DNA of 64,000 nucleotides. It comes from a virus. Its lineage: Duplodnaviria; Heunggongvirae; Uroviricota; Caudoviricetes. Both the position numbers and the translations under genes were made by a program. The notes below the pieces were generated by a model, which had not been told where the DNA came from, did no database searches, and worked only from the letters and a program-made list of their open reading frames with translations. Positions 10,183 through 63,660 of this stretch are shown here, one piece after another (the first letter of the stretch is position 1; each line of letters opens with the position of its first letter). The stretch is from the IMG/VR virus record IMGVR_UViG_3300026549_001031; one strand, written 5' to 3'.

Positions 10183-10549
10183 GGGCTAGCTCTGGTTTCG
10201 ACAGGGGCTTGAAAGCAAAATACGACAGCAAGGGTGGATTCCCTTAACAGCCAAACAAAAATAAATGCTGACGAAAAATTAGCAATGGTTGCCTAGTTTA
10301 TTCTGGGTTTAACCCTCTTAGCTGATAGAAGCCATAGGTATTCAGTAAGAGTTAAGAACGATTGGCATTGTTGTTGATTCACAGATTCTCAGAACGCATT
10401 GACGGCATGAAAGAGTGAGATGTCTTATGTTAAATGCTTTAGGTAGCATAGTCAGTAAGAGGAAGGCTTTGACAAATACCGAGAGATTGCTGTAGTGATG
10501 TATTTGTAAGTACAGTTTTTGGATAGGGGTTCGACTCCCCTCTAGTCCA
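10183..10549 (+). ncRNA. ssrA: tmRNA (SsrA), tag (A)ADEKLAMVA
   Basis: GGGCTAG/CTAGTCC acceptor with G3-U, GGTTTCGACAGGG 5' signature, GGTTCGACTCC T arm, tag ORF 10267-10296 after ATAAAT. Confidence 0.95.
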
Positions 10550-10615
10550 CTGGGCACCATTCAGAGGAATGGCTGTCCTGATTTCCCAATTTTCACATTA
10601 AACTCAATCTTAAGG

Positions 10616-39556: not shown

Positions 39557-40321
39557 ATGACAAAGCCTGACATGATAAAAGAACTTAAGGTTTATGGTGC
39601 TGATGATAAAAGCATCAAGATCATTTTAAGACGTGGAGAACCTACATATAAGTTTAACGTTGGGGACATGGTTAAGCATGGTGGGTTTGCAGAGACAGTA
39701 GTGAAGGACCAGTTATGTAATGGAATGGCTTACATTGTAGAATGTAAGACAGATAAGGGAGAAAGGGTAGAGCATCTGGTTCCTTGGACAGAAGTAAGAA
39801 AATTAGAGAGAAGCAGTGAAATTATCTCAACTAACAATGATGTTGATTTACTGTTTCACCCTAAGGACTTAACAGAACTTATTGGAACTTACTACTACAG
39901 TTTTGGTATTGATACTGATCCTGAATATCAGAGAGGTTACGTGTGGAACGAGGCAGATAGAGAAGAGCTGATGGACAGTGTGTTCAAGTCAATTGACATT
40001 GGTAAAATAGTGCTGGTAGACAAGGAACACGCAGGAGATACAGATGATTGGTATGAGATCCTGGATGGTAAGCAGCGGCTTTTAACACTTGTTGCATACT
40101 TTGAAGATAGATTCCCTTATAAAGGCTTGTACTACAGTGATCTTTGTAGGGAGGACAAGAGAAAGTTCGACAATACAAGTGTTTCAGTGGCAATTGTCAG
40201 AAACGCTAGTAAAGAATTGATATACAGATTGTTTATCATGCTCAACACGGCAGGAAAGTCAATGAGCAGCGAGGACATGGATAGAGCATTGAAACTTTAC
40301 AAAGAAAGCATTGAGAAATAG
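39557..40321 (+). CDS. DUF262 (ParB/Srx-like) domain protein
   Basis: PEYQRGYVW, ILDGKQRL, LFIMLNTAG. Confidence 0.85.
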   Translation: MTKPDMIKELKVYGADDKSIKIILRRGEPTYKFNVGDMVKHGGFAETVVKDQLCNGMAYIVECKTDKGERVEHLVPWTEVRKLERSSEIISTNNDVDLLFHPKDLTELIGTYYYSFGIDTDPEYQRGYVWNEADREELMDSVFKSIDIGKIVLVDKEHAGDTDDWYEILDGKQRLLTLVAYFEDRFPYKGLYYSDLCREDKRKFDNTSVSVAIVRNASKELIYRLFIMLNTAGKSMSSEDMDRALKLYKESIEK

Positions 40322-40333
40322 GAGGATACAATT

Positions 40334-41551
40334 ATGAAATTAGCACAAATCATTAACAGTTTGTTAGAGACAGACATGTACAAATTCAGCATGGGGCAGG
40401 CAATTTATCATCAGTTTTCAGGATACAAGACAACCTGGACATTTAAGTGTCGTAACAAGGATGTGAAATTTACACCTGAAATGGTGCAGGAGATCAGAGA
40501 GCAGATCAAGGCATATTGTGGCTTAAGATTTACAGAGCCTGAACTTGAGTATCTGCATGGTATCAAGTGGCTTAAGGGATCGTATGTGGACTTCTTAAGA
40601 TTGTGGCAGCCTCGATTTGAGGACTTTACAATCACAGAGGATGGTCCTTGTGGTTTATCAATCGAAACATTTGGTACATGGTTGAATACCTCTATGTATG
40701 AGATTCCTACACTTGCAGTTGTAAATGAGGTATACTTCAGAATGTCAAAAGACTATGACAAGTTGATCAAGAGCTTTAAGGAAAAAATGGATGCCAAGTA
40801 TGAAATGCTGAAGAGCGGTCACTGGTACATTGGTACATTCAGTGAGTTTGGTCTGCGTCGTAGACTTTCAGCAGAGGCACAGGAGTATGCAATTGATAAG
40901 CTTTCTCATCTGAATGATACATTACATTGTTCATCAAAGTTCATTGGCACTTCAAATGTGTACCTTGCAAAGAAGTTTGGTTTAACACCTGTAGGAACGA
41001 TGGCACATGAGTGGATTATGTGTACTGGACAGGGAAATCATAAGCATAATCCTGCATATTCTAACTGGTATGCACTGGACGCTTGGGTTAAGGAGTATGG
41101 AGTATTAAATGGTATTGCATTAACAGATACAATCACCACTGATTGTTTCTTAAGAGACTTTCAGTTAACCTATGCAACACTGTTTAACGGAGTAAGACAT
41201 GACAGTGGAGACCCTGTAGAATGGGGAGAGAAAATGATTGAGCACTACAAGGCTCTTGGAATTGATCCTAAGACAAAGACACTTCTGTTCAGTGACAGCC
41301 TGAACTTTGAGAAGGCAGATAAACTTTACAGACGCTTCTGCAATGATACAAATGTAGCATTTGGAATTGGAACTTACATTTCAAATGACACCTGTGAAGA
41401 GCCTCTGAACATTGTGATGAAAGTTACACGTTGTAATGGAATGGACGTTGCAAAGATCTCTGATACAGTAGGTAAAGGCATGTGCAAGAATCAGGAATAC
41501 GTTGACTATCTGCAGAGATGCATCGACTGGAGAATGGACAACGATAAATAG
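40334..41551 (+). CDS. pncB: nicotinate phosphoribosyltransferase
   Basis: SLLETDMYKFSM, EFGLRRR, GTSNV, GTMAHEW, RHDSGDP, FSDSL, FGIGT, KISD. Confidence 0.95.
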   Translation: MKLAQIINSLLETDMYKFSMGQAIYHQFSGYKTTWTFKCRNKDVKFTPEMVQEIREQIKAYCGLRFTEPELEYLHGIKWLKGSYVDFLRLWQPRFEDFTITEDGPCGLSIETFGTWLNTSMYEIPTLAVVNEVYFRMSKDYDKLIKSFKEKMDAKYEMLKSGHWYIGTFSEFGLRRRLSAEAQEYAIDKLSHLNDTLHCSSKFIGTSNVYLAKKFGLTPVGTMAHEWIMCTGQGNHKHNPAYSNWYALDAWVKEYGVLNGIALTDTITTDCFLRDFQLTYATLFNGVRHDSGDPVEWGEKMIEHYKALGIDPKTKTLLFSDSLNFEKADKLYRRFCNDTNVAFGIGTYISNDTCEEPLNIVMKVTRCNGMDVAKISDTVGKGMCKNQEYVDYLQRCIDWRMDNDK

Positions 41552-41627
41552 AAAACAACAAAAGCAGTTGGAAGTAGAGCATACACCAGTTTCTAATAGG
41601 GCTGGTGTATGTTTAGTTGGGGGGACA

Positions 41628-42221
41628 ATGGAGATGGAGAACAAACTTACTAAACTTGAAAAAGTGCAAGGTGGAAAATTTCTTAACTTGTACAATTTAG
41701 AGTATACACGTGAAGATGGCAGTAAGAAAATCTATGAGACAGTAAGTAGAAAATCAGATCTTACACTTGATGATATGCAAGACAGTTCAATAGTTGCACA
41801 GGCAGTAGGAATGATAATGTTTAATCATGACATGAGTAAGATTATGCTTCAGCAGGAGTTCAGGATGGCAATGAACAAATGGGTGTATAACTTCCCAGGT
41901 GGTTTAATTGACAGCGGAGAAGATGCAGAGCAAGCAGCAACAAGAGAACTCTGGGAGGAGACAGGGTTGCATTTGGACAAGGTGATTGCACATTTACCTG
42001 TGACTTATACATCAGTTGGAATTAGTAATGAGACATCTGAGACAATTGTAGGTACAGCAAGTGGAGAGTTCAAGGCAAGTACATCAGTGGATGAGCAGAT
42101 CAAACCTGGTTGGTACAGTAAGGAAGATGTTAAGGCACTTCTTGAGAAGAAAGTACCAATGAGTATGAGAACAATGTCAGTGCTTTGGATGTGGGTCAGC
42201 ATGGACACATTGAAAGCATAA
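41628..42221 (+). CDS. Nudix hydrolase (ADP-ribose pyrophosphatase-like)
   Basis: QEFRMAM, FPGGLIDSGEDAEQAATRELWEETG. Confidence 0.88.
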   Translation: MEMENKLTKLEKVQGGKFLNLYNLEYTREDGSKKIYETVSRKSDLTLDDMQDSSIVAQAVGMIMFNHDMSKIMLQQEFRMAMNKWVYNFPGGLIDSGEDAEQAATRELWEETGLHLDKVIAHLPVTYTSVGISNETSETIVGTASGEFKASTSVDEQIKPGWYSKEDVKALLEKKVPMSMRTMSVLWMWVSMDTLKA

Positions 42222-42257
42222 CATAAAAAGAAAATAGGTTGAGTGGAGGTGGACATT

Positions 42258-42473
42258 ATGGGAATAAAGATGTTCATGGTAAAAGTTGTAACAGACAATG
42301 GGTATAACTGGGTGGCACATAAAGTCATTGTACGGGCAGACAATGAGGAACAGGCAGTAGCAAAGGCACATAAGAGTTTTGAGGGAAAACTTAAATTTGA
42401 TTGCTATGTACTTAAGGATAAAACAGAGTGCATAGAGATTGAATTTGATGAGCATGATTGTTACTATGTTTAA
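42258..42473 (+). CDS. small hypothetical protein
   Basis: GGAGG RBS; IVRADNEEQAVAKA. Confidence 0.6.
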   Translation: MGIKMFMVKVVTDNGYNWVAHKVIVRADNEEQAVAKAHKSFEGKLKFDCYVLKDKTECIEIEFDEHDCYYV

Positions 42474-42563
42474 TATGATAGGGCATATATCATTTGATGT
42501 ATGTCCTATTTTTATGCTTTAATATAAAAAAGAAATAAATTTATTTTTATTTTGGAGGAAAGA

Positions 42564-43418
42564 ATGGAAACGTACACACGCTTTGATTTTGAGCGAGAAG
42601 TCTTTGGTATGGATGTTGTAGACTTACTAGAGATATTAGATTATAAAAAGAACATCATATTGCAAGGGGCACCTGGTGTAGGTAAGACATATACTGCAAA
42701 AAGATTAGCCTATGCAAAGCTTGGATACATTGATAAGGATAGAGTGGTGCAGGTACAATTTCATCAGAACTATACATACGATGACTTTGTCATTGGTTTA
42801 AGACCTACAGAGGATGGTGGTTTTAGGTTTGAGCATGGACCTTTTTACAATATCTGTAAAAAAGCAGAGTCAGACTTTGAACATAAACCTTACTTCATAG
42901 TAATTGATGAGATCAACAGAGCAAATATGAGTAAGGTACTTGGTGAGGGCTTTTCACTTATTGAGAAAGATCATAGAAATGAACCTATTCTACTTAAGTA
43001 TGGTAATGAGGAGTTCAGTGTTCCTGATAACTTATACATTATTGGGACAATGAATACAGCTGATAGAGGCTTGGTAATGCTTGATTATGCATTAAGACGA
43101 AGATTTGCATTCATTACAGTTGATCCTCAATACAAGTCAGAGGGATTTAGACAGATAATGTATCAGTCAAACAACATTAAGTTTAATAGGATAGCAAAGA
43201 AAATAATTGAGTTAAATAAAGAGATCAGTAATGATGATATGCTAGGACCTGGTTTTCAGATTGGTCACTCATATTTTTGTTTGGGTAGACCTGTAACAGA
43301 TGATGATTTGAATTGTATAATTACATTCGAGATAATGCCTCTACTTAATGAATATTGGTATGACTCACCAGATAAAGTGAGTAAGTGGGAAGATACCTTC
43401 AGGGCAATACTTGGATAG
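42564..43418 (+). CDS. McrB-like AAA+ GTPase lacking N-terminal DNA-binding domain
   Basis: GAPGVGKT, QFHQNYTYDDF, IDEINRAN, GTMNTADR, DYALRRRF, IGHSYF. Confidence 0.9.
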   Translation: METYTRFDFEREVFGMDVVDLLEILDYKKNIILQGAPGVGKTYTAKRLAYAKLGYIDKDRVVQVQFHQNYTYDDFVIGLRPTEDGGFRFEHGPFYNICKKAESDFEHKPYFIVIDEINRANMSKVLGEGFSLIEKDHRNEPILLKYGNEEFSVPDNLYIIGTMNTADRGLVMLDYALRRRFAFITVDPQYKSEGFRQIMYQSNNIKFNRIAKKIIELNKEISNDDMLGPGFQIGHSYFCLGRPVTDDDLNCIITFEIMPLLNEYWYDSPDKVSKWEDTFRAILG

Positions 43419-43435
43419 CATTGGGAGAGTTAAAA

Positions 43436-43840
43436 ATGACATATGAAATTAAGAAAGAAAAGAAATTGAAAATGAGTGGAATACATAGTGAGAATAAGAT
43501 ATGCATGTACTTATTGAGTTTATTTGCAATTGGAGTTATGCTTAGCCTGCTTGGAATAAACATTGACAAACAGTTAAAGACATTCAATGGAGTTGGAATA
43601 CTTGTAAGTGCAAGTTTAATAGTTATAGTAAATACAGTACACAAAGAGAGAAAAGCATTGGGATATAAAGAAAAATGCATTGAATATGGTGATACTGATG
43701 TATTAAATGCAATGTTACTTTTTGTGGGACTTATGTCAATACATAATAGAGTCACTTGTGAGATTATAGTGATATGTAATTTGGTGTTTGAACAGTTGTT
43801 AAGGAGATTGAACTTTGGCAGTAAGAAAACAGCAGAATAG
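43436..43840 (+). CDS. small polytopic membrane protein
   Basis: 3-4 hydrophobic helices, between mcrB and mcrC. Confidence 0.6.
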   Translation: MTYEIKKEKKLKMSGIHSENKICMYLLSLFAIGVMLSLLGINIDKQLKTFNGVGILVSASLIVIVNTVHKERKALGYKEKCIEYGDTDVLNAMLLFVGLMSIHNRVTCEIIVICNLVFEQLLRRLNFGSKKTAE

Positions 43841-44912
43841 AGAAATTGAAAATGCATTTAATATGTTATGTTACTTATATGATGAGATAAAAGGTAGAAA
43901 ATTTAAGACATTTACGTTAGATGGAATAAACAATTTAGATAGTTTATATGCAGCGATTGTTTCAAGATGGTGTGCAGCATTAGCAAAGCAAGGGCTTTAT
44001 AAGGAATATGTAGTACAGGAAAATGAAGAATTAACATCACCGAAAGGTCAGATAAACATTCAGGAATCAATTACAAGACAGACAAGATCAAGAGGAACAT
44101 TGATTTGTAGTTATGATGAGTTAAGTGAAGATATTTATATAAATCATATATTAAAAGGCACGTTACAGTATTTATTATTTAACAGCAATGTAGATGAAAA
44201 AGTGAAAGTTGAAGTTAAAAAAGCATTACAGATGTTTAATGGTGTAGGATACGTTGATATTAACTTAATACATTGGAAAACAATTAAGTATAACAATAAT
44301 AATATGACTTACAAGCATTTGATTGAATTATGTAAAACAATGTTGGATGAACAGAAAGCATGTAAGAATGGAATATTAACAGATGATCAGAGAATGTACA
44401 TATTGTTTAAGAAACAGATTAGAAAATGGTTCAGAGAGACATATAGTGATGAAGATAATACAGTAGAAATAGTTGATGCACCTTATGAGAGAATGGAGGA
44501 TGAGCCTGAATTTGAATTAAAAACGAGCAAGTCACAGAGAATGATAGCAATAAGAAATGATAGATGTGCATTGTTAATATGTGTTAGGTTGCAAGATGAA
44601 AAATTACAGCAAGACAGTACATTAGGACGTAGACATGCAGAGGAATTAGTAAGACATTGTAGAGATTATAAAGATACATACAGAGTTAAGGTATTTGGCT
44701 GTATAGTTTATGTGAATATAGACAAGAGGAAATTGAATTTGCAGCCTATTACAGTGAATGCATTTAATGATTACATGATTGGTGAGACAACAGTTGATAT
44801 TTATGATCAGTGGAGGTTTGTAGAGAACAAGTTAAAAGATTGTTATAAATATTTCATTGAGCGTGAGAACAATAGAGCACACAAGGTAAATAATAAGAAA
44901 ATCAGGAAATAA
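43815..44912 (+). CDS. McrC-like protein
   Basis: NAFNMLCY, GLYKEY, PKGQI, CSYDELSEDIYINHILK; adjacent to McrB. Confidence 0.75.
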   Translation: MAVRKQQNREIENAFNMLCYLYDEIKGRKFKTFTLDGINNLDSLYAAIVSRWCAALAKQGLYKEYVVQENEELTSPKGQINIQESITRQTRSRGTLICSYDELSEDIYINHILKGTLQYLLFNSNVDEKVKVEVKKALQMFNGVGYVDINLIHWKTIKYNNNNMTYKHLIELCKTMLDEQKACKNGILTDDQRMYILFKKQIRKWFRETYSDEDNTVEIVDAPYERMEDEPEFELKTSKSQRMIAIRNDRCALLICVRLQDEKLQQDSTLGRRHAEELVRHCRDYKDTYRVKVFGCIVYVNIDKRKLNLQPITVNAFNDYMIGETTVDIYDQWRFVENKLKDCYKYFIERENNRAHKVNNKKIRK

Positions 44913-48267: not shown

Positions 48268-48346
48268 AGGTGCTTTTGGTTCTTACAGCAATTTTTCAGG
48301 CATAGACTTTTAATCTATAAACCATACAGAATCATGTTTAGCACTT
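48268..48346 (+). ncRNA. YUACAGCAAU-module RNA carrying a tRNA-Lys anticodon stem-loop
   Basis: aggtgct/agcactt outer stem; tggttc-TTACAGCAAT ... gaatca-TGT; ataga-CTTTTAA-tctat inside. Confidence 0.7.
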
Positions 48347-50543: not shown

Positions 50544-51518
50544 GTGTTAACAGCTAACTTAAATAAAAGGTTCTGTAGGGATACAGGAACAAGCATTGCA
50601 GTGTTTATTGATCCTTATTTTTCAGAGAGAATCAAGTTGCTTGGACTTGAGGAAAAGTACATGGACTTTGAGAAAATGATCAATGAACAGTTTGGAGGAA
50701 TTGAACAACAGTACTTTGAGTATTGTGAACAGGTAGAAAAAGAGGTTCTAGCATTTCTAAAAGATAGTGAGTCACTAAAAAGTTTGCAGACTTGTGATAT
50801 GAGCAAGTATAAAAATACTTTTAGCATTCCTAGTGGAAATGTTTACAAGGGTGACAACATTGGTAAAAAGTACATAAGCATTGATATGGCTAAAGCAAAC
50901 TTCAGTGCATTAGTTCACTACGAGAAAGAAATTGGAATGGACAGTGCAGAAAAGAGTTTTGGACAGTTATGCGGATATGATTACAATAAGTTTATTGATC
51001 ACTTCACAGATAATAAGTTTGTTGCAGAGTCAAAATATGTGAGACAGTACATTTTTGGTCACTGCTGTTCAAAGAGAGTTGTCAACTATGAAAAATGGAT
51101 TATGGGTACAGTAATGGATAAGTTACCTGCCAGTGCAGTAAATAAGGTAGTTACATTGAATAATGATGAAATCATTATTGATGCAGGGGACTTAACATTA
51201 GAAGAGGTAAATGGTCTTAGAATATTAGTTGAACAGCTTTCAGAAGAAATTGTACCATTACATTTTGAATACTTTACACTGAAAGGTTTCTATGGCACAG
51301 AGCAGAAAGTGTTTATGAAGCAGTTCATTGATGAGAATGGACAGCAGAATGGGTACAAGTTAGCATGTAATAATTCAATTGATACAGTGTTCATTGAGAA
51401 GTATTTGCATGGAATTGAAATTACAGACAATGACTTGGTGTTCAACTGTCAGTATGGTTTAGCAAAATTGCTTAAAGTTCCAGAAGCATACACGAAAGGA
51501 ATCAAAAATGTTCAATGA
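50544..51518 (+). CDS. hypothetical protein with polymerase-palm-like motifs
   Basis: YISIDMAKANFSAL, SKYVRQYIFG, NNDEII. Confidence 0.6.
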   Translation: MLTANLNKRFCRDTGTSIAVFIDPYFSERIKLLGLEEKYMDFEKMINEQFGGIEQQYFEYCEQVEKEVLAFLKDSESLKSLQTCDMSKYKNTFSIPSGNVYKGDNIGKKYISIDMAKANFSALVHYEKEIGMDSAEKSFGQLCGYDYNKFIDHFTDNKFVAESKYVRQYIFGHCCSKRVVNYEKWIMGTVMDKLPASAVNKVVTLNNDEIIIDAGDLTLEEVNGLRILVEQLSEEIVPLHFEYFTLKGFYGTEQKVFMKQFIDENGQQNGYKLACNNSIDTVFIEKYLHGIEITDNDLVFNCQYGLAKLLKVPEAYTKGIKNVQ

Positions 51519-52569
51519 GAAATACAGAGAGTTGCTTGAGGGAAGTGAGTATGACTTCTTAAGAGAACACAATAGACTTGGTAAAAAATTAATGATGCTT
51601 GTGGTAAGTGGTAGTAAGGCACATGGAACTGATACACCTACTAGTGATACAGACATTAGGGGTGTGATGGGCAACAGTGTGAATGAACTTGTGAAAGTTG
51701 AAAAAGACTTTGGTACTTTCATTGAAAAAGACACTGATACTTGTATTCATACATTTGATAAAACCTGTGATCTTATGCTATCGTGTAACCCTTCAATCAT
51801 GGAAATGTTTGGATGCAGGGATGAAGAAATCATCTATTATGATAAGCATGGAAAAATGCTGATGGACAATTATGATAAGTTCTTAAGCATTAGGGCAGTG
51901 AGCAGCTTTGGTGGATTTGCTAATGCACAGTTTAACAGAATGAAGCACAGCTTAATTGCAAATGGGCAGAATCCTGATGCAGAGTTAGAAATGCTCAAGC
52001 ATAGTTTAGAAAATGCAATGACAGCGTTTAATGCAACTCATCAGGGAACAGCAATTGATGTACAGATCAGAATGGTAAGTGATCAGGAATTAAAGAGAAT
52101 TCATCCTGAAATTAAGACAACAAGCGAATATGACAAACATCACATTTTAGTTAATGGACACTTTAATGAAGCAGATGTCACTGATTTTAAGACAGTAATT
52201 AGTGAGTTACACAAGATTCAAAGTGAGTATGGCAAGTTGAATAAAGAGAATACAAAGAAAACAGATATTAAGCTTGCTAAACATATGATGGACCTGGTTT
52301 ATATTTACCTTGTTGGGGCAGATCTGAACAGTGGAAAAGGAATGATTACTTACAGAGAAAAAGAGCATGACATGCTGATGGATATTAGGAACATGAAGTA
52401 TTTAACACCAGATGGGTTGAAAGTAAAATCTGACTTCTATGATTTGCTGAATGACATTGAAAAAGAATATATGTATACAGCTAAAAATTGTGTATTACCT
52501 GAGAAACCTGACTATGAGGCAATCAGTGATATGAAAAGACAGGTTTATTTAGATATGCTAGCAGGATAG
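51508..52569 (+). CDS. DNA polymerase beta superfamily nucleotidyltransferase (RlaP/YcgL-like)
   Basis: SGSKAHGTDTPTSDTDIRG, NPSIME, KLAKHM, LPEKPD. Confidence 0.85.
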   Translation: MFNEKYRELLEGSEYDFLREHNRLGKKLMMLVVSGSKAHGTDTPTSDTDIRGVMGNSVNELVKVEKDFGTFIEKDTDTCIHTFDKTCDLMLSCNPSIMEMFGCRDEEIIYYDKHGKMLMDNYDKFLSIRAVSSFGGFANAQFNRMKHSLIANGQNPDAELEMLKHSLENAMTAFNATHQGTAIDVQIRMVSDQELKRIHPEIKTTSEYDKHHILVNGHFNEADVTDFKTVISELHKIQSEYGKLNKENTKKTDIKLAKHMMDLVYIYLVGADLNSGKGMITYREKEHDMLMDIRNMKYLTPDGLKVKSDFYDLLNDIEKEYMYTAKNCVLPEKPDYEAISDMKRQVYLDMLAG

Positions 52570-53451: not shown

Positions 53452-53790
53452 ATGGGCGAAAATAATGAGACATTAAGGAAAGAAGAAAAAGACATAGGGG
53501 AGTCAGAGGTTAAGCACGAGAAGAAGAAGTTGACGCCTGAAGAGGAAATGGAGATCGTCAGGAGAGTAAGGGTACAGACACGAAGTGAATATGCTGGCAT
53601 GGTGAGCAATAAGAGTTCATATAATGTGAGTAGCATTGCGATTATGTTCGTTGCAGTACTGGTATTATTTATGCTTGCTAAATATATTATGACTAGCACT
53701 AGAACAGGTGGAAGCAAAGTGGAGAATCAGCAAACTACAGAGCAAAGTTCAGATAGAACAGATTCAGGTAGGGTGGACAGTGATGATTAA
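53452..53790 (+). CDS. single-pass membrane protein
   Basis: AGGAGG RBS, one TM helix. Confidence 0.65.
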   Translation: MGENNETLRKEEKDIGESEVKHEKKKLTPEEEMEIVRRVRVQTRSEYAGMVSNKSSYNVSSIAIMFVAVLVLFMLAKYIMTSTRTGGSKVENQQTTEQSSDRTDSGRVDSDD

Positions 53791-53815
53791 AGGCAAGGCA
53801 GTGGAGGAAAGATAA

Positions 53816-54121
53816 ATGGCAGAGGTTTACTCAGGTATTGAGAGGTTTATGTTTGCAGATGCATATAGTTTATTTCTTAAATACAGAGATATGAAAGATA
53901 TAGACAGTGAATGGGAACAGCTAACACAGGATATAAGTCAACTCACTATGAAGTACAATCAACATAGGTTAATAATGTGTTTAACAATGGCAGTTGCAGA
54001 ACAACTTACTCATAAAATAGAAGATGCACCAATAAATGGTTTATCACATGAACAATGGGAAACAGTTTTGAAAGATAGTCATTATATGTCAAAATTTATG
54101 CCTATTCAAAGAAAATTTTAA
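53816..54121 (+). CDS. hypothetical protein
   Basis: GGAGG RBS, 101 aa helical. Confidence 0.65.
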   Translation: MAEVYSGIERFMFADAYSLFLKYRDMKDIDSEWEQLTQDISQLTMKYNQHRLIMCLTMAVAEQLTHKIEDAPINGLSHEQWETVLKDSHYMSKFMPIQRKF

Positions 54122-54129
54122 TTTATTTG

Positions 54130-54158
54130 TTGACAAAATATGGGAAGTAGTATATAAT
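54130..54158 (+). promoter_or_regulatory. sigma-A promoter of DUF2828 operon
   Basis: TTGACA-17-TATAAT. Confidence 0.88.
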
Positions 54159-54225
54159 AAATATTGTTGAGAGGTAAGGAAGTAAAGCAACAAGTTGTTT
54201 GAGGATTCTTACTTCGAAACATTGA

Positions 54226-54293
54226 AACTGGTGTACTTACAGCAATCTTTTATAAAACATTTCAGGGTAAAGTTTTTATAGTACACTGTAGTT
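54226..54293 (+). ncRNA. YUACAGCAAU-module RNA, leader copy 1
   Basis: aactG-gtgtac-TTACAGCAAT ... gtacac-TGT-agtt. Confidence 0.75.
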
Positions 54294-54295
54294 AA

Positions 54296-54360
54296 GTTTG
54301 AGGTGCCTACAGCAATTTTTAAATCACATTAGGCATGTATGAAATGTGCACCTTGTAAAC
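54296..54360 (+). ncRNA. YUACAGCAAU-module RNA, leader copy 2
   Basis: gtttG-aggtgc-CTACAGCAAT ... gcacct-TGT-aaac, abutting RBS. Confidence 0.75.
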
Positions 54361-54374
54361 AGGAGGAAAACAAA

Positions 54375-55859
54375 ATGGGTTTAGGATCAGCAATCAGAGA
54401 AGAGGCGTCATGGGGAAAAACGACCAATGGTGCAGATGCAAGGGTAGCAACTGGCAGTGCTTTGCTTGATATGTTTGGACGTGCAGGAGCAATGCGTGGA
54501 GCAGATGAGATTGATAAGCAGATTATGATCTCACAGGCATTCAAGGAAAATGCAGACTTCGCAGTGAAGTTATTGTTCTACACGAGAGATGTTCGTGAGG
54601 GCTATGGTGAAAGAGATACCTTCCATACCATGTTAAGATGGCTTGCATTTGAATCAAAAGAGTCAGTGGAGAAAAATCTCTGGGCAATTCTGGAGTTTGG
54701 AAGAGCAAGTGACCTTTATGCACTTGTTGGAACACCTGCAGAGGATGCAATGTGGGAGTTTATGAGAAATCAGTTCGAACTCGACTACAAAAACATGCAG
54801 GCAGGTAAGAGTATTTCACTACTTGCAAAATGGATGGCTTCGCCTAATTCAAGAACAGCTAAGAAAAAGCAGCTTGGTAAACTGACAGCTAAGGCACTTG
54901 GCTACTCATACAAAAATATGAGAGAGCTTAAGCAGAAAATCAGTGCAATGCGTAAATACCTTGATCTGCCTGAAGTAAAAATGGCAGCAGGCAAGTGGGG
55001 CGAGATTGAGTACAGTACTTGCGCATCGAAAGCACTTCTGTATCACAAGAATGCATTTGCAAGACATGATATGCAGAGATGGCAGGAATACCTGGAGTCA
55101 GTTAACAAGGGCGAAGAGAAGATGAATACAGGCACTTTGACACCTTGTGACATTGTTGCAAAATACAATGACCTGTCTAATGTAGACAAGGCATTGGAGA
55201 CAATGTGGGATAACCTTGAGGATGTAAACGATGGCAATGTGCTTGTAATGGCAGATACATCAGGTTCAATGTTCCACAATCATTTTGGAGGATTAAGACC
55301 TATTTACGTGTCAGTTGCATTGGCAATTTACTTTGCTAAGCATAACAAGGGAGACCTCAAAAACTTGTTTATGACATTTGAGAGTAATCCTCACTTCATT
55401 GAAATTAAGGAGGCTTCACTGTTTGATACAATTCATGCAGTAAAAAAGGCAGAATGGGGCAATAGTACAAACCTTGTGAAAGCATTTGATAAATTGCTTG
55501 AGGTCTGTGTTAAAGGTGGTGTGTCACAGGAAGATATGCCTAAAGCAATCCTTGTTGTTTCTGATATGCAGATCAATTCAGCATCAAGTGCTTGTGATGG
55601 GGAGGGTCGTATCAGTTTCTTTGAAAGCATGTCTAAGAAATATGAGAAGGCAGGATACAAAATGCCACAGCTTGTATTTTGGAATGTAAATGCAAAGAGA
55701 GCAACATTCCATGCATCAAAAGATGATGCAGGAGCATCCCTTGTAAGTGGATTTTCAGTGAATGTGTTTAAGCAGGTCATCGAATGTATTGGTTCTACAC
55801 CATACGAGTTGATGATGAGCATTCTTGAATCCGAGAGATACAAGGACATTGTTGCATAA
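54375..55859 (+). CDS. DUF2828 family protein (TROVE/Ro60-like helical domain + vWA)
   Basis: TTNGA...TGSALLDMF, FYTRDVREGYGER, SLLAKW, MIDAS DTSGSM, WGNSTN, SDMQI, FWNVN; AGGAGG RBS at 54361. Confidence 0.88.
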   Translation: MGLGSAIREEASWGKTTNGADARVATGSALLDMFGRAGAMRGADEIDKQIMISQAFKENADFAVKLLFYTRDVREGYGERDTFHTMLRWLAFESKESVEKNLWAILEFGRASDLYALVGTPAEDAMWEFMRNQFELDYKNMQAGKSISLLAKWMASPNSRTAKKKQLGKLTAKALGYSYKNMRELKQKISAMRKYLDLPEVKMAAGKWGEIEYSTCASKALLYHKNAFARHDMQRWQEYLESVNKGEEKMNTGTLTPCDIVAKYNDLSNVDKALETMWDNLEDVNDGNVLVMADTSGSMFHNHFGGLRPIYVSVALAIYFAKHNKGDLKNLFMTFESNPHFIEIKEASLFDTIHAVKKAEWGNSTNLVKAFDKLLEVCVKGGVSQEDMPKAILVVSDMQINSASSACDGEGRISFFESMSKKYEKAGYKMPQLVFWNVNAKRATFHASKDDAGASLVSGFSVNVFKQVIECIGSTPYELMMSILESERYKDIVA

Positions 55860-55944
55860 GTAACAATAAGAAGATTGAATATGCATCAGTTGATAAAACT
55901 CAACTTCAGTGTTTTACCAACTGATGCATTGAAAATAAAAATAT

Positions 55945-56078
55945 GACGATGTAGCTCAGCTGGTAGAGCACCTGGAATATATTTTTGTGATTCATGTTGT
56001 TTATCTGTGAATCCTACAGCAATCATTTTTAAATGTTGGCAGCCAGGGGGGTCATAGGTTCGAATCCTATCATCGTCA
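55945..56078 (+). ncRNA. tRNA-like RNA with 67-nt anticodon-loop replacement containing permuted YUACAGCAAU module
   Basis: GACGATG/CATCGTC acceptor, GCTC-AGCTGGTA-GAGC D arm, CCTGG/CCAGG stem, ATAGG-TTCGAAT-CCTAT T arm. Confidence 0.85.
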
Positions 56079-56162
56079 CTGACATGCATAGTAGTGCATG
56101 CATGTCATTGTCCTTAGTTTTTGTGCAGTGATTTTGTAGGATAAAGTCGTTGCAGTGATCCA

Positions 56163-56204
56163 GAAAAGAGCCCTCAGGTGGTGGTGTACCTGAGGGCTCT
56201 TTTC
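56163..56204 (+). terminator. terminator of DUF2828 operon
   Basis: gaaaagagccctcaggt/acctgagggctcttttc perfect 17-bp inverted repeat. Confidence 0.85.
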
Positions 56205-56278
56205 ATATGCATTGAATGGAGCATTGAAATATAATAAAAAGAATTTTTAATTTCTTTGTTTAGCAGGAGGATTGTGGA

Positions 56279-57049
56279 ATGTTTGCATGTGAATTATATT
56301 TAGACGATTGCTTTAAGAGAATGGAACAGCTAATTTCAGAGGGTAGACAAGTGGATGCTATTATCTGTGACGTACCTTATAATATAGGCATAGCTGATTG
56401 GGATACAAGCTTTGATGTAGAAAAGGCATTGAAATTGTGTTATCAGTTACTTAAAGAAAATGGTAACATCATTATATTTCAGGGTTGGAGTGAAGTATGC
56501 AAGACAATAGACATTATGAATAAATTGTTTACTCCTATGAACTGGATAATTTGGGACAGGGTCAAGGGGCGTGGAGCATCTAAAAATCTTGTTTCTACAA
56601 GAGAGGATATTTTGTGGTACTGCAAGGGAGAAAATGCAACATTTCATAAACAAATGTCTAACATAGTTAAGAAGACATCTGGCATGGGTGATAAGAATGG
56701 AATGGATACAAGAGCACTAACTAATGTTTGGTATGACATAGGATCATTGGTGCCTTGGTCACCTGAAAGTGAAGAGGGCAAGAATAGTAATGGAGATAGA
56801 CATCCTTCACAAAAACCTGTTGAACTTATGGAAAGGTGTATTAAGCTTTGGACAAGTCCTATGGATACAGTGTTAGATTTTACAATGGGCACTGGAACAA
56901 CAGGTGTGGCATGTAGAAACTTAAACAGAAACTTTATAGGTATTGAGAAAGACAATGAGTGGTTTAGTATTGCACAGAGAAGAATAAACAATACAGAGAG
57001 TGAAAACAGCAATGCAGAGGATGATGTTTATGATGGACTCGACTTTTAG
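56279..57049 (+). CDS. orphan N6-adenine/N4-cytosine DNA methyltransferase (beta class)
   Basis: CDVPYN motif IV, HPSQKP, LDFTMGTGTTG motif I, IGIEKD. Confidence 0.9.
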   Translation: MFACELYLDDCFKRMEQLISEGRQVDAIICDVPYNIGIADWDTSFDVEKALKLCYQLLKENGNIIIFQGWSEVCKTIDIMNKLFTPMNWIIWDRVKGRGASKNLVSTREDILWYCKGENATFHKQMSNIVKKTSGMGDKNGMDTRALTNVWYDIGSLVPWSPESEEGKNSNGDRHPSQKPVELMERCIKLWTSPMDTVLDFTMGTGTTGVACRNLNRNFIGIEKDNEWFSIAQRRINNTESENSNAEDDVYDGLDF

Positions 57050-57113: not shown

Positions 57114-58538
57114 ATGAGTGAGGAATTAAAATTTACAGTAAAACAAATTAAAAGCATACCTGGAGAAGTTGTAGCATTGTCATCAATGTTTTATACAGAG
57201 GGTTTTGAAATATATGCAGTGGGTGGTTGTGTAAGAGACTTATACTTAAATAGAACACCACATGATTGGGATTTATGTACAAGTGCAAAACCTGAACAGA
57301 CAATGGAAGTGTTGAAGAAATTTGGAGTATCGTTTACTACAGTAGGTATTGAGTTTGGTACAGTGGAGGCTCAGTGGAATGGCAGTGAGTTTGAAATCAC
57401 AACTTTCAGAAAAGATGGTGATTACAGTGACAGCAGACATCCTGATGTAGTGGAATACAGTACAAATGTATACGACGACTTACAGAGAAGAGACTTCACC
57501 ATTAACTCAATTGCTTATGACTGTGTAAGAAATAAGTTTATAACATTGGATGGTGCAGTGAGTGACCTTAATAATAGGGTATTGCGTTGTGTAGGAGATC
57601 CTGACAAGAGGTTTAAAGAGGATCCTTTAAGAATTTTACGTGCACTCAGGTTTAAGACAGTGCTTGGATTAAGTATTAAGAGTGAGACATCTGATAAAAT
57701 GCATGAACTTAAAGATTTGTTAACTACAGTATCAAAGGAAAGAGTGACAGATGAGTTTAGAAAGATGCTTAGTACAAGAGCATCAATTAAGGAAGGTTTC
57801 ATGGAATATCATGATGTGATCTTTACTTTAATTCATGAACTACAGCAATGTTTTGAATTTGATCAGAGAAACAAGTATCATACACATGATGTTTATGAGC
57901 ATATGCTTTATGTAGCAGACTACTGCAATACTTATATTGATATGCAGTGGTGTGATAAAGAAAAGACCTTTGTAATCAGACTTGCTGGTTTATTGCATGA
58001 CATTGGTAAACCCGATTGCTTCACTATGGATGAAAATGGGCAGGGTCATTTTTATAAACATCCTGTGAGATCAGCAGAGATATGTAAGGTGATGCTTAAA
58101 AAGAATTTCAGACTTACACTGGAAGAATACAATGAAGTCATGGGATTAGTAGAATACCATGACATGGACTTAGGGGATACACCTAAGGCAGTTAAGAGGG
58201 CAATGAATAAGTTTGGGGTCGACTTTATGAAAATGTGGTGTGTCATTAAGCAGGCAGATAAGAATGATCATGTAAATGTGAATGGCATTATGCCTAATGC
58301 AGATATAATTAGAAATGAGATTGATAGCATAGTTGAGGATGGGCAGTGTTTTTCTCTTAAGGACCTTGCTATTTCAGGTGATACAGTTATGAGTTTATTA
58401 GGTATTAGACCTGGTAAGACAGTGGGATTGATATTACAAACATTATTGTCAGAAGTAATAGATGATAAGATTGAGAATGATCCTGAAGTGTTAAAGGGCA
58501 GGGCATTGGAGTTATTTGGAGAGGACATTTCAAAATGA
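57114..58538 (+). CDS. cca: CCA tRNA nucleotidyltransferase with HD domain
   Basis: VGGCVRD, HDWDL, EITTFR, DLQRRDFTINSIA, EDPLRILRALRF, SKERV, LLHDIGKP. Confidence 0.93.
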   Translation: MSEELKFTVKQIKSIPGEVVALSSMFYTEGFEIYAVGGCVRDLYLNRTPHDWDLCTSAKPEQTMEVLKKFGVSFTTVGIEFGTVEAQWNGSEFEITTFRKDGDYSDSRHPDVVEYSTNVYDDLQRRDFTINSIAYDCVRNKFITLDGAVSDLNNRVLRCVGDPDKRFKEDPLRILRALRFKTVLGLSIKSETSDKMHELKDLLTTVSKERVTDEFRKMLSTRASIKEGFMEYHDVIFTLIHELQQCFEFDQRNKYHTHDVYEHMLYVADYCNTYIDMQWCDKEKTFVIRLAGLLHDIGKPDCFTMDENGQGHFYKHPVRSAEICKVMLKKNFRLTLEEYNEVMGLVEYHDMDLGDTPKAVKRAMNKFGVDFMKMWCVIKQADKNDHVNVNGIMPNADIIRNEIDSIVEDGQCFSLKDLAISGDTVMSLLGIRPGKTVGLILQTLLSEVIDDKIENDPEVLKGRALELFGEDISK

Positions 58539-61968: not shown

Positions 61969-63660
61969 ATGTTAGAGATTAAAGGAAAGAATAATACTTG
62001 TAAGGTTTTTACTGATGTCATTGATAGTGCAACAGTTGGGCAGTTGACTAGTTTAATGAATACAGAGGCAGTTAAGGGTAGTACAGTAAGAATTATGAGT
62101 GACTGTCATGCTGGAGCAGGTTCTGTCATTGGAACAACTATGACATTACATGATAAGGTAATACCTAACCTGGTTGGGGTGGACATTGGTTGTTTTACAG
62201 GAGATACAAAGGTGTTTACAGCTAGTGGCTCATGGGCAAAGATTAAAGACCTTGTGGATAAGGGAGTATTCACAGTAGATTCCTATGATACAGAGACTAG
62301 AAGTTTTGTGACAAGTAAAGCAGTAGCAAAGAAAACAAGAGAAAATGCACAGCTTGTTAAGGTAGTGTATCATACAGTATCAAGTATCAATGAGAAGCAG
62401 TTTGAAGTTTACTGTACACCTGATCATAAGTTCTTGACCAGGGGGAATAATGGTGATGAGCATTGGGTTGAGGCAAGTCACTTAAGCTTGGGTATTGAGT
62501 TGGTATCAGAAGATTACAGAGTCATTGTTGATGATGTATGTAGTACAGATAGAGTAGAGGATGTGTACTGTTTAACAGTAGAGGATACACATAGTTTTCT
62601 TATTGAGGGCAGTGTAGTAGTTCACAATTGCGGAATGTTAGCAATTAAATTAAAGGAAAAGCGTATTGATTTTACTAAATTGGACAGTGTTATTAGAAAA
62701 TATGTACCTAGTGGAAAAGAGAGCAACAGTGAGTCTAAAGAGGACAGAACAAGTTTAGATGTTAGGGCATTAAGGTGTTTTGGTAAGACAGGGGCAGCAA
62801 TTAGAGAGGAACTTGCATATAGAAGTGTAGGTACACTGGGAGGTGGGAATCACTTCATTGAGATAGACAAGGATGCTCAGGGTTGTTTATGGTTGGTCAT
62901 TCATACTGGAAGCAGACAGCTTGGAATTGGAGTTTGCAAATATTATCAGGATTTAGCTTACATTAAGTTAAAAGATAAGTTCAATGGTGGCTCAAAGAAA
63001 GACAAGATGAATGAGATAATTGGCAGACTGAAGTCAGAGGGTAGACAGCAGGAGATTAGCAAGGAACTTGATAAGTTTAATAAAACATATAATGAAAAAC
63101 ATCCTCCTATTTCTCATGAGCTAGCATATGTAGAAGGCAGTGATTTTGATGATTACATTCATGATATGAAAATGGTGCAGGATCATGCATGTTGCAACAG
63201 GGCTGAAATTGCTAGAATCATACTTAAGAAAGCAAAGTTGCATGAGGTTGACAGGTTCGAGACAATCCATAACTATATTGATACAGAGAATATGATATTA
63301 AGAAAAGGAGCGATTAGTGCACAAGCAGGTGAAAGAGTGCTAATACCATTAAATATGAGAGATGGATCATTGATTTGTTTAGGTAAGGGCAATCCTGATT
63401 GGAACTACAGCGCACCTCATGGAGCAGGTCGTTTAATGAGCAGGGCACAGGCTAAAGAGAAAATTGCAGTGAAGGATTTTCAGAAAAGCATGGATGGAAT
63501 TTTCACTACTTGTGTAGGTAGAGGTACAATTGATGAAAGTCCGATGGCATATAAGCCAATGGAGAGTATCATTGAAAATATTGGAGATACAGTAGAAATT
63601 GTAGAGAGGATTTTACCTGTATACAATTTCAAGGCTGGCAGTGAGGATGAGGAGGAATAA
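61969..63660 (+). CDS. rtcB: RtcB RNA ligase interrupted by an intein
   Basis: MSDCHAG, VGVDIG|CGM, GTLGGGNHFIE, HTGSR, HNY, RKGA, SAPHGAGR, DESPMAYK. Confidence 0.95.
   Translation: MLEIKGKNNTCKVFTDVIDSATVGQLTSLMNTEAVKGSTVRIMSDCHAGAGSVIGTTMTLHDKVIPNLVGVDIGCFTGDTKVFTASGSWAKIKDLVDKGVFTVDSYDTETRSFVTSKAVAKKTRENAQLVKVVYHTVSSINEKQFEVYCTPDHKFLTRGNNGDEHWVEASHLSLGIELVSEDYRVIVDDVCSTDRVEDVYCLTVEDTHSFLIEGSVVVHNCGMLAIKLKEKRIDFTKLDSVIRKYVPSGKESNSESKEDRTSLDVRALRCFGKTGAAIREELAYRSVGTLGGGNHFIEIDKDAQGCLWLVIHTGSRQLGIGVCKYYQDLAYIKLKDKFNGGSKKDKMNEIIGRLKSEGRQQEISKELDKFNKTYNEKHPPISHELAYVEGSDFDDYIHDMKMVQDHACCNRAEIARIILKKAKLHEVDRFETIHNYIDTENMILRKGAISAQAGERVLIPLNMRDGSLICLGKGNPDWNYSAPHGAGRLMSRAQAKEKIAVKDFQKSMDGIFTTCVGRGTIDESPMAYKPMESIIENIGDTVEIVERILPVYNFKAGSEDEEE
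62191..62628 (+). mobile_element. 146-aa mini-intein in RtcB
   Basis: starts CFTGDT, block B CTPDHKF, block F DVYCLTV, ends VVHN before +1 Cys; no homing endonuclease motifs. Confidence 0.93.

Follow-up and report, generated by a model that had tools for sequence, protein, structure and literature searches.

A handle-tagged tRNA-like RNA beside a phage DUF2828 gene: a probable new variation on the Ro60/Y-RNA theme

Introduction

Ro60 proteins and Y RNAs have been studied for a long time, from human autoimmunity to bacteria, and their function is still unclear. Ro60 binds Y RNAs, and the bacterial Y RNA YrlA mimics tRNA; in Mycobacterium smegmatis, RNase P cleaves YrlA, to which CCA is also added (PMC4201824; bioRxiv 10.1101/312249). 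The locus described here raises the question as to what kind of RNA joins a complete tRNA body to a second, non-tRNA module next to a phage gene. It lies in a 64,000-nucleotide (nt) stretch of DNA from a virus of the class Caudoviricetes (IMG/VR record IMGVR_UViG_3300026549_001031), which we call the window. The element at 55945–56078 follows a gene that codes for a protein of the Pfam family DUF2828. An earlier reading made from the letters alone (the sequence-only reading) described this element as a tRNA body whose anticodon loop is replaced by a circularly permuted copy of a module that recurs nearby, and pointed to YrlA as the relevant comparison. We find that the element is a real conserved RNA and, in our best reading, a new variation on the Ro60/Y-RNA (YrlA) theme. 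Our best explanation, to which we assign a probability of about 0.6, is that it represents a small non-coding RNA of the Y-RNA class, with a complete tRNA body as its scaffold, and a likely partner of the DUF2828 protein, not a working or intron-bearing tRNA.

Results and Discussion

Anatomy of the element

The plus strand of the element matches the Rfam model RF00005 with 51.9 bits (gathering score 29, E 3e-8), and 71 of 71 model positions are matched. The acceptor stem comprises 7 bp (GACGATG at 55945–55951 paired with CATCGTC at 56071–56077) and is followed by a discriminator A at 56078. The D arm spans 55954–55969 and contains G18 and G19, the T arm spans 56054–56070 (GGTTCGAATCC), and the anticodon stem is formed by the strands CCTGG (55971–55975) and CCAGG (56043–56047). 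In the RF00005 alignment, a 67-nt insertion (55976–56042) occupies exactly the place of the 7-nt anticodon loop. The variable loop measures 6 nt, and the third acceptor pair is C3-G70, not the alanine determinant G3-U70. The canonical arms, the CCTGG/CCAGG stem, the native tRNA ends, the 67-nt insert and the missing alanine pair had all been described in the sequence-only reading, and its coordinates proved exact.

A contiguous 5-bp anticodon stem closed by a 7-nt loop was not found, as 60–67 nt separate CCTGG from CCAGG. ARAGORN run without introns makes no call on the element; with the option -i it reports a tRNA-Ala(GGC) with a 60-nt intron at position 31/32. The insert contains hairpin H (55989–56013), in which GATTCA (55989–55994) pairs with TGAATC (56008–56013) across a 13-nt loop. 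It is followed by CT and then by ACAGCAAT at 56016–56023. The loop UUGGCAG that remains next to the 3' strand of the anticodon stem carries U33 and A37. Folded alone, the insert is no more stable than shuffled sequences (z ~0). We therefore dropped folding energy as evidence, and the case made below is comparative, not thermodynamic. Pairing between ACAGCAAU and the loop of hairpin H was sought by eye in the element, and none was found.

One handle in two topologies

The motif YTACAGCAAT occurs six times in the window, where 0.76 matches are expected; none of 100 shuffled sequences reaches six. Four of these copies are intergenic and on the plus strand (48283, 54237, 54307 and 56014). The match CTACAGCAAT at 57840–57849(+), within the gene for the CCA-adding enzyme, lacks a flanking helix, and a minus-strand match at 10486 in the transfer-messenger RNA (tmRNA) gene lacks helix context; both were taken as chance matches.

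To the 5' side of ACAGCAA, the ten preceding bases share one profile, regardless of whether the motif follows a closed hairpin (64 contexts) or belongs to a Y-like, open-ended helix with its partner strand downstream (344 contexts). In the hairpin and open-helix contexts, respectively, the profile reads G (69 and 67%), A (73 and 49%), Y (89 and 77%), A (53 and 40%) and C (67 and 57%), followed by two free bases. The core of the handle is thus a short helix that terminates in GAYAC and is followed by two bases and a single-stranded ACAGCAAU. Since in either topology the motif is preceded by one and the same helix strand, the two arrangements relate to each other as predicted for circular permutations of one module, which bears out the permuted order proposed from the letters. 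The handle of the tRNA-like RNA is the same as the open-ended helix found in the DUF2828 leader and beside the DUF2828 genes of unrelated phages. It also occurs in RNAs without any tRNA body.

A family of handle-tagged tRNA-like RNAs

Neither the handle nor handle-tagged tRNAs are described in Rfam or in the literature that we searched, full text included, and a blastn comparison of the window locus with 50,697 phage records returned no match. Two gut-phage fragments with DUF2828 proteins 42–45% identical to that of the window contain several long tRNA matches with a similar insert just upstream of the gene. Family members were collected by two pattern scans of viral contigs, after which a script selected on four features alone: CAGCAA, a T arm, an acceptor stem and a D stem. 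The collection amounts to 96 unique sequences in 49 clusters; members of the family also occur in Klebsiella, Enterococcus and Felix-O1-like phages. Covariation in the acceptor, D and T pairings was not counted because our own filters had required these pairings; only hairpin H and the unpaired tertiary nucleotides, for which no filter had asked, count as evidence. Among 46 aligned representatives, U8, A14, G18, G19 and A21 are each at least 90% conserved. Hairpin H was recovered by RNAalifold, with changes on both sides in six of six pairs, and 92% of its alignment cells are paired, as compared with ~45% when the partners are slid.

A covariance model of the family (R1) scores the window element, a seed member, at 85.6 bits, and the 18 ordinary tRNAs of the window at no more than 39.5 bits. 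Many matches outside the seed score 60–100 bits, and arrays of 3–5 copies per locus are common. We conclude that the element belongs to a large RNA family absent from Rfam and from the literature searched. The window copy is set apart within this family by its position downstream of the gene and by its insertion point at 31/32.

The closest relative of the window locus was found on a human-gut contig (ORTT01000003, 464,735 bp; hereafter L221), which encodes a DUF2828 protein 94% identical to that of the window. Its tagged tRNA occupies the same place after the DUF2828 gene, its body, hairpin H and CUACAGCAA are nearly unchanged, and as a non-seed sequence it scores 78.5 bits with R1. On this evidence the window probably stems from a gut phage or an extrachromosomal element of ~0.4–0.5 Mb.

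A third architecture with the same handle is represented by mini tRNA-likes in two loci (L003, 1622–1719, and L002, ~1692–1790), which consist only of an acceptor stem and a T arm in addition to hairpin and handle (TGCCCCGA...CTTACAGCAAT...ACGGGTTCAAGTCCTGTCGGGGCA).

At present such RNAs are missed in annotation, labelled "tRNA with intron", or overlaid by spurious small open reading frames. In a Klebsiella phage (PQ360875.1), for instance, three minus-strand coding sequences for a "hypothetical protein" at 4494–5002 overlie plus-strand handle-tagged tRNA-likes (R1 matches at 4614–4722, 4737–4866 and 4873–5002). These small coding sequences are probably mis-annotations.

Linkage to DUF2828

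The link between this RNA and DUF2828 was approached from both sides. Loci fished by the RNA pattern alone contain a DUF2828 gene in 73 of 102 cases, and most of the others are truncated on the side expected to carry it. In the loci that do contain the gene, all 143 RNA copies lie on its strand and within 1364 nt of it (median 536); 132 copies are upstream and 11 downstream. The sequence-only reading had suggested looking for equivalents beside other DUF2828 genes, and this search, together with the motif kept at the homologous place in L221, answers in its favour.

For the converse approach, ten loci were selected by tblastn only, from phages of Bacillus, Mycobacterium, Salmonella (Felix-O1-like), Staphylococcus, Vibrio, Listeria (A511), Klebsiella and Enterococcus. 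These loci contain ACAGCAA 35 times on the strand of the gene versus once on the other strand, where chance predicts ~4.5 copies for each, and they are concentrated around the ends of the DUF2828 gene. In three complete phage genomes, R1 matches longer than 100 nt occur solely beside DUF2828. The protein itself is widespread: 695 phage records give a tblastn match to it.

In Listeria phage A511 (NC_009811.2), the region 1486–2037 between a tRNA and the DUF2828 gene matches the ROOL RNA family with 87.5 bits, just under the gathering score of 99.1. Three ACAGCAA handles follow at 2690–2848.

The neighbouring protein resembles Ro60

The DUF2828 protein matches PHROG 850, annotated as "RNA-binding protein", with an E value of 1.7e-122. 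An AlphaFold2 model based on 26 homologues reached a mean predicted local distance difference test (pLDDT) score of 89 and a predicted template modelling (pTM) score of 0.89. With this model as query, Foldseek ranks 1–11 in the PDB are all Ro60 structures (TM scores 0.47–0.63). The best match is Xenopus Ro60 (1yvr, TM 0.63/0.60), and the second is 9kop, which together with 9l5y represents Ro60 of the Thermus phage phiLo; Deinococcus Ro60 (2nvo) is also among the matches. A phmmer search of PDB sequences returned neither Ro60 nor any other relative. In Pfam, the protein matches solely DUF2828, DUF7788 and, weakly, VWA_2 at E values up to 0.01, with no match to TROVE (PF05731). As modelled, the DUF2828 protein is therefore a HEAT-repeat ring of the Ro60 fold closed by a von Willebrand factor A (vWA) domain, and by sequence it stands outside TROVE.

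Comparison with Y RNAs and other tRNA-like RNAs

YrlA (RF02553; Chen et al. 2014, PMC4201824; Wang et al. 2018, bioRxiv 10.1101/312249) is the right comparison, as the sequence-only reading had anticipated. YrlA RNAs mimic tRNAs and are encoded next to Ro60 genes. In both cases a small RNA adjoins a gene for a Ro60-fold protein on the same strand. Both RNAs are modular and combine a helix that binds the protein, or in the window RNA is predicted to do so, with a tRNA mimic that comprises D and T arms and tertiary nucleotides, and YrlA is found in bacteria as well as in mycobacteriophages. The differences begin with topology. YrlA lacks both a free CCA end and an anticodon loop; its acceptor loop is closed, and its 5' and 3' ends form the Ro-binding stem (bioRxiv 10.1101/312249). 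In contrast, the ends of the window RNA form a 7-bp acceptor stem, and its handle branches off internally, as a hairpin in the anticodon stem. The motifs also differ: YrlA carries GNCGAA(N)G and the handle GAYAC-NN-ACAGCAAU, here CU-ACAGCAAU. No GNCGAA(N)G was found in the window element, where the sole CGAA lies in the T loop. RF02553 gives no match to 55400–56600 at E values up to 10, and the neighbouring protein belongs to Pfam DUF2828, not to TROVE. As topology, motif and model score all fail, the window element is not a member of the YrlA family; by analogy, it would nonetheless work like a Y RNA.

Mycobacterium phage Silverleaf connects the two classes. Beside its DUF2828-type gene, annotated as "Ro-like", a weak RF02553 match (39.8 bits, gathering score 69) is flanked by a helix with CAGCAAU. 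The 360-nt gap after the gene holds three handle RNAs (at 4415–4672), of which this match is one; another consists of the 5' half of a tRNA-like RNA joined to a helix with ACAGCAAU.

A second phage system offers a further parallel. Ro60 of the Thermus phage phiLo binds the RNAs Yrl1 and Yrl2, which are encoded just upstream (PMC12135203; PDB 9KOP, 9L5Y), so that here too a phage Ro60-fold protein is accompanied by small partner RNAs. The phiLo RNAs differ from the window RNA in that they are plain stem-bulge-stem structures with a CGAA motif and no tRNA body, and the protein shares only ~14% identity with DUF2828. With tmRNA and viral tRNA-like structures, the window RNA shares a tRNA-shaped domain with native acceptor ends that is fused to a second functional module. 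Those RNAs, however, are charged and act in translation or replication, and they have neither a Ro-like partner nor a motif in common with the element.

The anticodon arm: intron, side arm or bait

Bacterial group I introns sit in the anticodon loop of tRNA genes, and archaeal introns of the bulge-helix-bulge type occur at non-canonical positions. As in such genes, an insertion interrupts the anticodon arm of the window element, whose tRNA parts are otherwise complete, and the sequence-only reading had named as its alternative a 60-nt intron whose removal leaves the anticodon GGC. This possibility calls for a close look at the arm. For 70 family members, we parsed the anticodon region as a 5-bp stem, allowing the insert to interrupt its 5' strand. 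ARAGORN -i was not used for this analysis; applied family-wide, it forces introns into the loop and returns inconsistent anticodons. In 35 of the 70 members, all five stem pairs are present and close a 7-nt loop with U33 and a purine at position 37, mostly of the form (A/C)U-NNN-AA, whereas shuffled controls yield 1.3 such cases on average and 5 at most. The insertion follows the second or third stem pair in 22 of the 35 and ranges overall from 26/27 to 31/32. The handle thus branches off the 5' strand of the anticodon stem as a side arm and does not stand in for the anticodon arm. The description of the loop as replaced must be corrected on this point, also for the window copy, in which UUGGCAG is kept beside CCAGG.

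According to the intron explanation, a 60-nt intron at 31/32 splits what is otherwise a tRNA-Ala(GGC) gene. A putative endonuclease, perhaps guided by the handle or by DUF2828, would excise the intron, and the ligase RtcB would join the halves to a decoding tRNA. This is exactly the call made by ARAGORN -i, and the left-over loop has the expected U33 and A37. Half of the family contains a canonical split anticodon stem-loop, RtcB is encoded in the window, and GGC is missing from the 18 ordinary tRNAs of the window. The identity elements speak against it, with C3-G70 in place of the alanine pair G3-U70 and a variable loop of 6 nt. So does the closest relative: in L221 the anticodon stem keeps its pairing through a compensatory change from G31-C39 to C31-G39, but the loop reads UAGGCCA, without U33 and without a purine at position 37, and the solution that ARAGORN offers for it needs an intron at 34/35 and C37. 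Furthermore, both the insertion point and its distance to the handle vary among members, which fits no cleavage at a fixed distance.

The bodies of the tagged RNAs do not suit their anticodons either. The nearest ordinary tRNA body has the isotype of the anticodon in 3 of 35 family copies, as opposed to 441 of 899 (49%) ordinary tRNAs, although the isotype classifier behind these figures is crude, a point that tells for the other side. The serine anticodons GCT, TGA and GGA are combined with variable loops of 4–5 nt instead of long arms, and of 14 copies that could be assessed, 7 repeat an anticodon already present on an ordinary tRNA in the vicinity. A role as decoding tRNA is therefore disfavoured, to judge from these sequence comparisons. 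The insert, with 60–67 nt, is too short for a group I intron, whose catalytic core (P3–P9) usually takes more than 200 nt, and a search of Rfam at E values up to 10 gave no match at the element to any intron or ribozyme family, group I included. The insert instead carries a conserved, DUF2828-linked module that also occurs outside tRNAs. A splicing endonuclease has not been reported in bacteria (bioRxiv 10.1101/312249), which counts against excision as well. Taken together, these observations make the intron explanation quite unlikely, even though the program does call the intron that had been suggested.

A variant that combines both ideas treats the handle as a removable tag. The element would then exemplify a new, protein-guided type of tRNA intron in phages: the Ro60-like ring would hold the handle while a putative nuclease and the RtcB of the phage excise the side arm. 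If this were true, stored, nuclease-resistant pro-tRNAs could become working tRNAs on demand, for example after attack by a host anticodon nuclease. We regard this variant as distinctly improbable.

The retained stem-loops invite another explanation, in which the tagged RNA serves as bait or decoy. A Ro-like ring bound to the handle would present a tRNA look-alike to host anticodon nucleases or to other tRNA-targeting defences, and would either soak up the nucleases or sense the attack and start repair by RlaP, the CCA-adding enzyme and RtcB. The conservation of anticodon stem-loops far above chance on non-cognate bodies is consistent with this idea, and so is the free anticodon-like hairpin with the loop CUUUUAA at 48268–48346, which is joined to the same handle. 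The locus belongs to an RNA-repair island, and the jumbo-phage literature ties Ro/TROVE proteins to RNA repair (PMC7824862). On the other hand, the tagged stem-loops are not copies of those of the phage's own tRNAs (6–14 of 17 positions identical in seven cases), and the loop is not conserved in the lineage of the window and L221. We consider a bait function unlikely as an explanation in its own right; it elaborates the reading as a DUF2828-bound Y-like RNA more than it excludes it.

The transcription unit and a proposed mode of action

The window is tRNA-rich and phage-like, with 18 ordinary tRNAs and a tmRNA at 10183–10552. The features of the DUF2828 unit and its surroundings are collected in Table 1. 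A sigma-70-type scan of 53700–56400 revealed no promoter-like site directly 5' of the tRNA-like RNA, which points to co-transcription with DUF2828. The leader between promoter and gene measures ~200 nt and holds two open-ended helices with ACAGCAAT. The hairpin that follows the DUF2828 stop codon has no U tract after it, and its outer stem is kept in L221; it may be a processing site or a stabiliser of the mRNA 3' end. A small hairpin separates the tRNA-like RNA from the terminator, and in the Rfam comparison 56163–56204 was aligned as part of a terminator.

Table 1. Features of the DUF2828 locus and related elements in the window
Feature	Coordinates	Strand	Evidence and remarks
Handle copy in the tRNA array, TTACAGCAAT at 48283	48268–48346	+	motif match, sequence
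RlaP gene	51508–52569		
Promoter of the DUF2828 unit, TTGACA-17-TATAAT	54130–54158	+	sole 12/12 sigma-70-type match in 53700–56400
First leader handle, open-ended helix GGTGTAC/GTACACT around TT-ACAGCAAT	54230–54287	+	sequence, motif match at 54237, GAYAC-NN-ACAGCAA profile
Second leader handle, helix GTGCCT/AGGCAT with ACAGCAAT	54302–54337	+	sequence, motif match at 54307; end ~25 nt before ribosome-binding site
DUF2828 + DUF7788 (vWA) protein, 494 aa	54375–55859	+	Pfam PF11443 1.5e-33, PF25043 7.4e-41
Stable hairpin between DUF2828 stop codon and tRNA-like RNA	55881–55929	+	folding free energy (dG) -22.2 kcal/mol, z -6.4
Handle-tagged tRNA-like RNA	55945–56078	+	RF00005 match and family model R1; 86 nt past DUF2828 stop codon
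60-nt side arm: A/U-rich spacer, hairpin H, CU, ACAGCAAU (56016–56023), 12-nt spacer	55976–56035	+	
Residual anticodon-like loop UUGGCAG (GGC) and CCAGG 3' strand of anticodon stem	56036–56047	+	stem parse, ARAGORN -i
Intrinsic terminator closing the DUF2828 unit	56163–56204	+	18-bp GC-rich stem, then UUUUC; dG -34.1, z -7.4
Gene for CCA-adding enzyme	57114–58538		~1 kb downstream of tRNA-like RNA
RtcB gene, intein-bearing	61969–63660	+	PF01139 in two stretches, Intein_splicing and HINT domains; ~6 kb from tRNA-like RNA

Two copies of the handle in the 5' leader, one of them close to the ribosome-binding site, and a tRNA-like RNA directly after the gene without a promoter of its own could also be understood in another way. 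ACAGCAAU could be a cis-acting processing or regulatory signal of tRNA and DUF2828 transcripts, such as an RNase site or an autoregulatory operator, without a stable ribonucleoprotein handle, and the tRNA-like RNA merely a 3' processing device of the DUF2828 mRNA. Processing of 3' ends by tRNA-like structures is indeed known for some long non-coding RNAs. A 3' device does not, however, explain the arrays of 3–5 tagged tRNA-likes that lie upstream of the gene in most loci, and the covariation of hairpin H together with the conserved tRNA tertiary nucleotides fits a folded, stable RNA. A purely cis-acting signal is very improbable.

If the element is a Y-like partner of DUF2828, the following sequence of events can be proposed. 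The RNA would be made as part of the DUF2828 transcript, which, as the signals suggest, starts from the promoter at 54130 and stops at the terminator that ends at 56204. The canonical acceptor, D and T arms predict a release in the manner of tRNAs, with RNase P acting at the 5' end, followed by 3' trimming and addition of CCA by the phage's own enzyme. The handle may then serve as docking site for the DUF2828 ring protein, a prediction derived from the strict linkage and the Ro60 fold. In this way, the RNA would attach a tRNA-shaped structure to the protein, whether or not that structure includes an anticodon-like loop. The outcome might be that DUF2828 is coupled to the tRNA-handling and repair enzymes RlaP, CCA-adding enzyme and RtcB, or that a tRNA look-alike is shown as bait. 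Binding of the handle, tRNA-type maturation and the tethering or bait function are thus predictions of our reading.

Several points weigh against it. About ten loci with lower-scoring family matches have no DUF2828 gene within ~5 kb. The canonical anticodon stem-loop is kept in half of the family; a spliced tRNA would need it too, and a pure model of handle plus tRNA elbow leaves it unexplained. The gene for the tRNA-splicing ligase RtcB is only ~6 kb away. Finally, the case for docking on DUF2828, as it emerges from sequence comparison, derives wholly from linkage.

Should the Y-like reading be correct, the locus points to a second and far more widespread phage version of the Ro60/Y-RNA partnership, one that has a protein family and an RNA handle of its own and uses entire tRNAs, native ends included, as partner RNAs. 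Well-studied laboratory phages (among them Listeria A511, Felix-O1-like, Klebsiella and Enterococcus phages) carry the system, which opens the partnership to direct tests. Were the RNA to link a Ro-like ring with tRNA repair, or with the struggle of phage and host over tRNAs, this would explain why these genes are found in tRNA arrays beside genes for RtcB, RlaP and CCA-adding enzymes.

Neighbouring genes

With RlaP, the CCA-adding enzyme and RtcB as neighbours, the DUF2828 locus lies within an RNA-repair island; a DNA methylase gene is also among the neighbours. Upstream of the tRNA array, at 39557–44912(+), genes for a GmrSD-N-like protein, an NAPRTase, an AAA_5 (McrB-like) protein and an McrBC component occur together.
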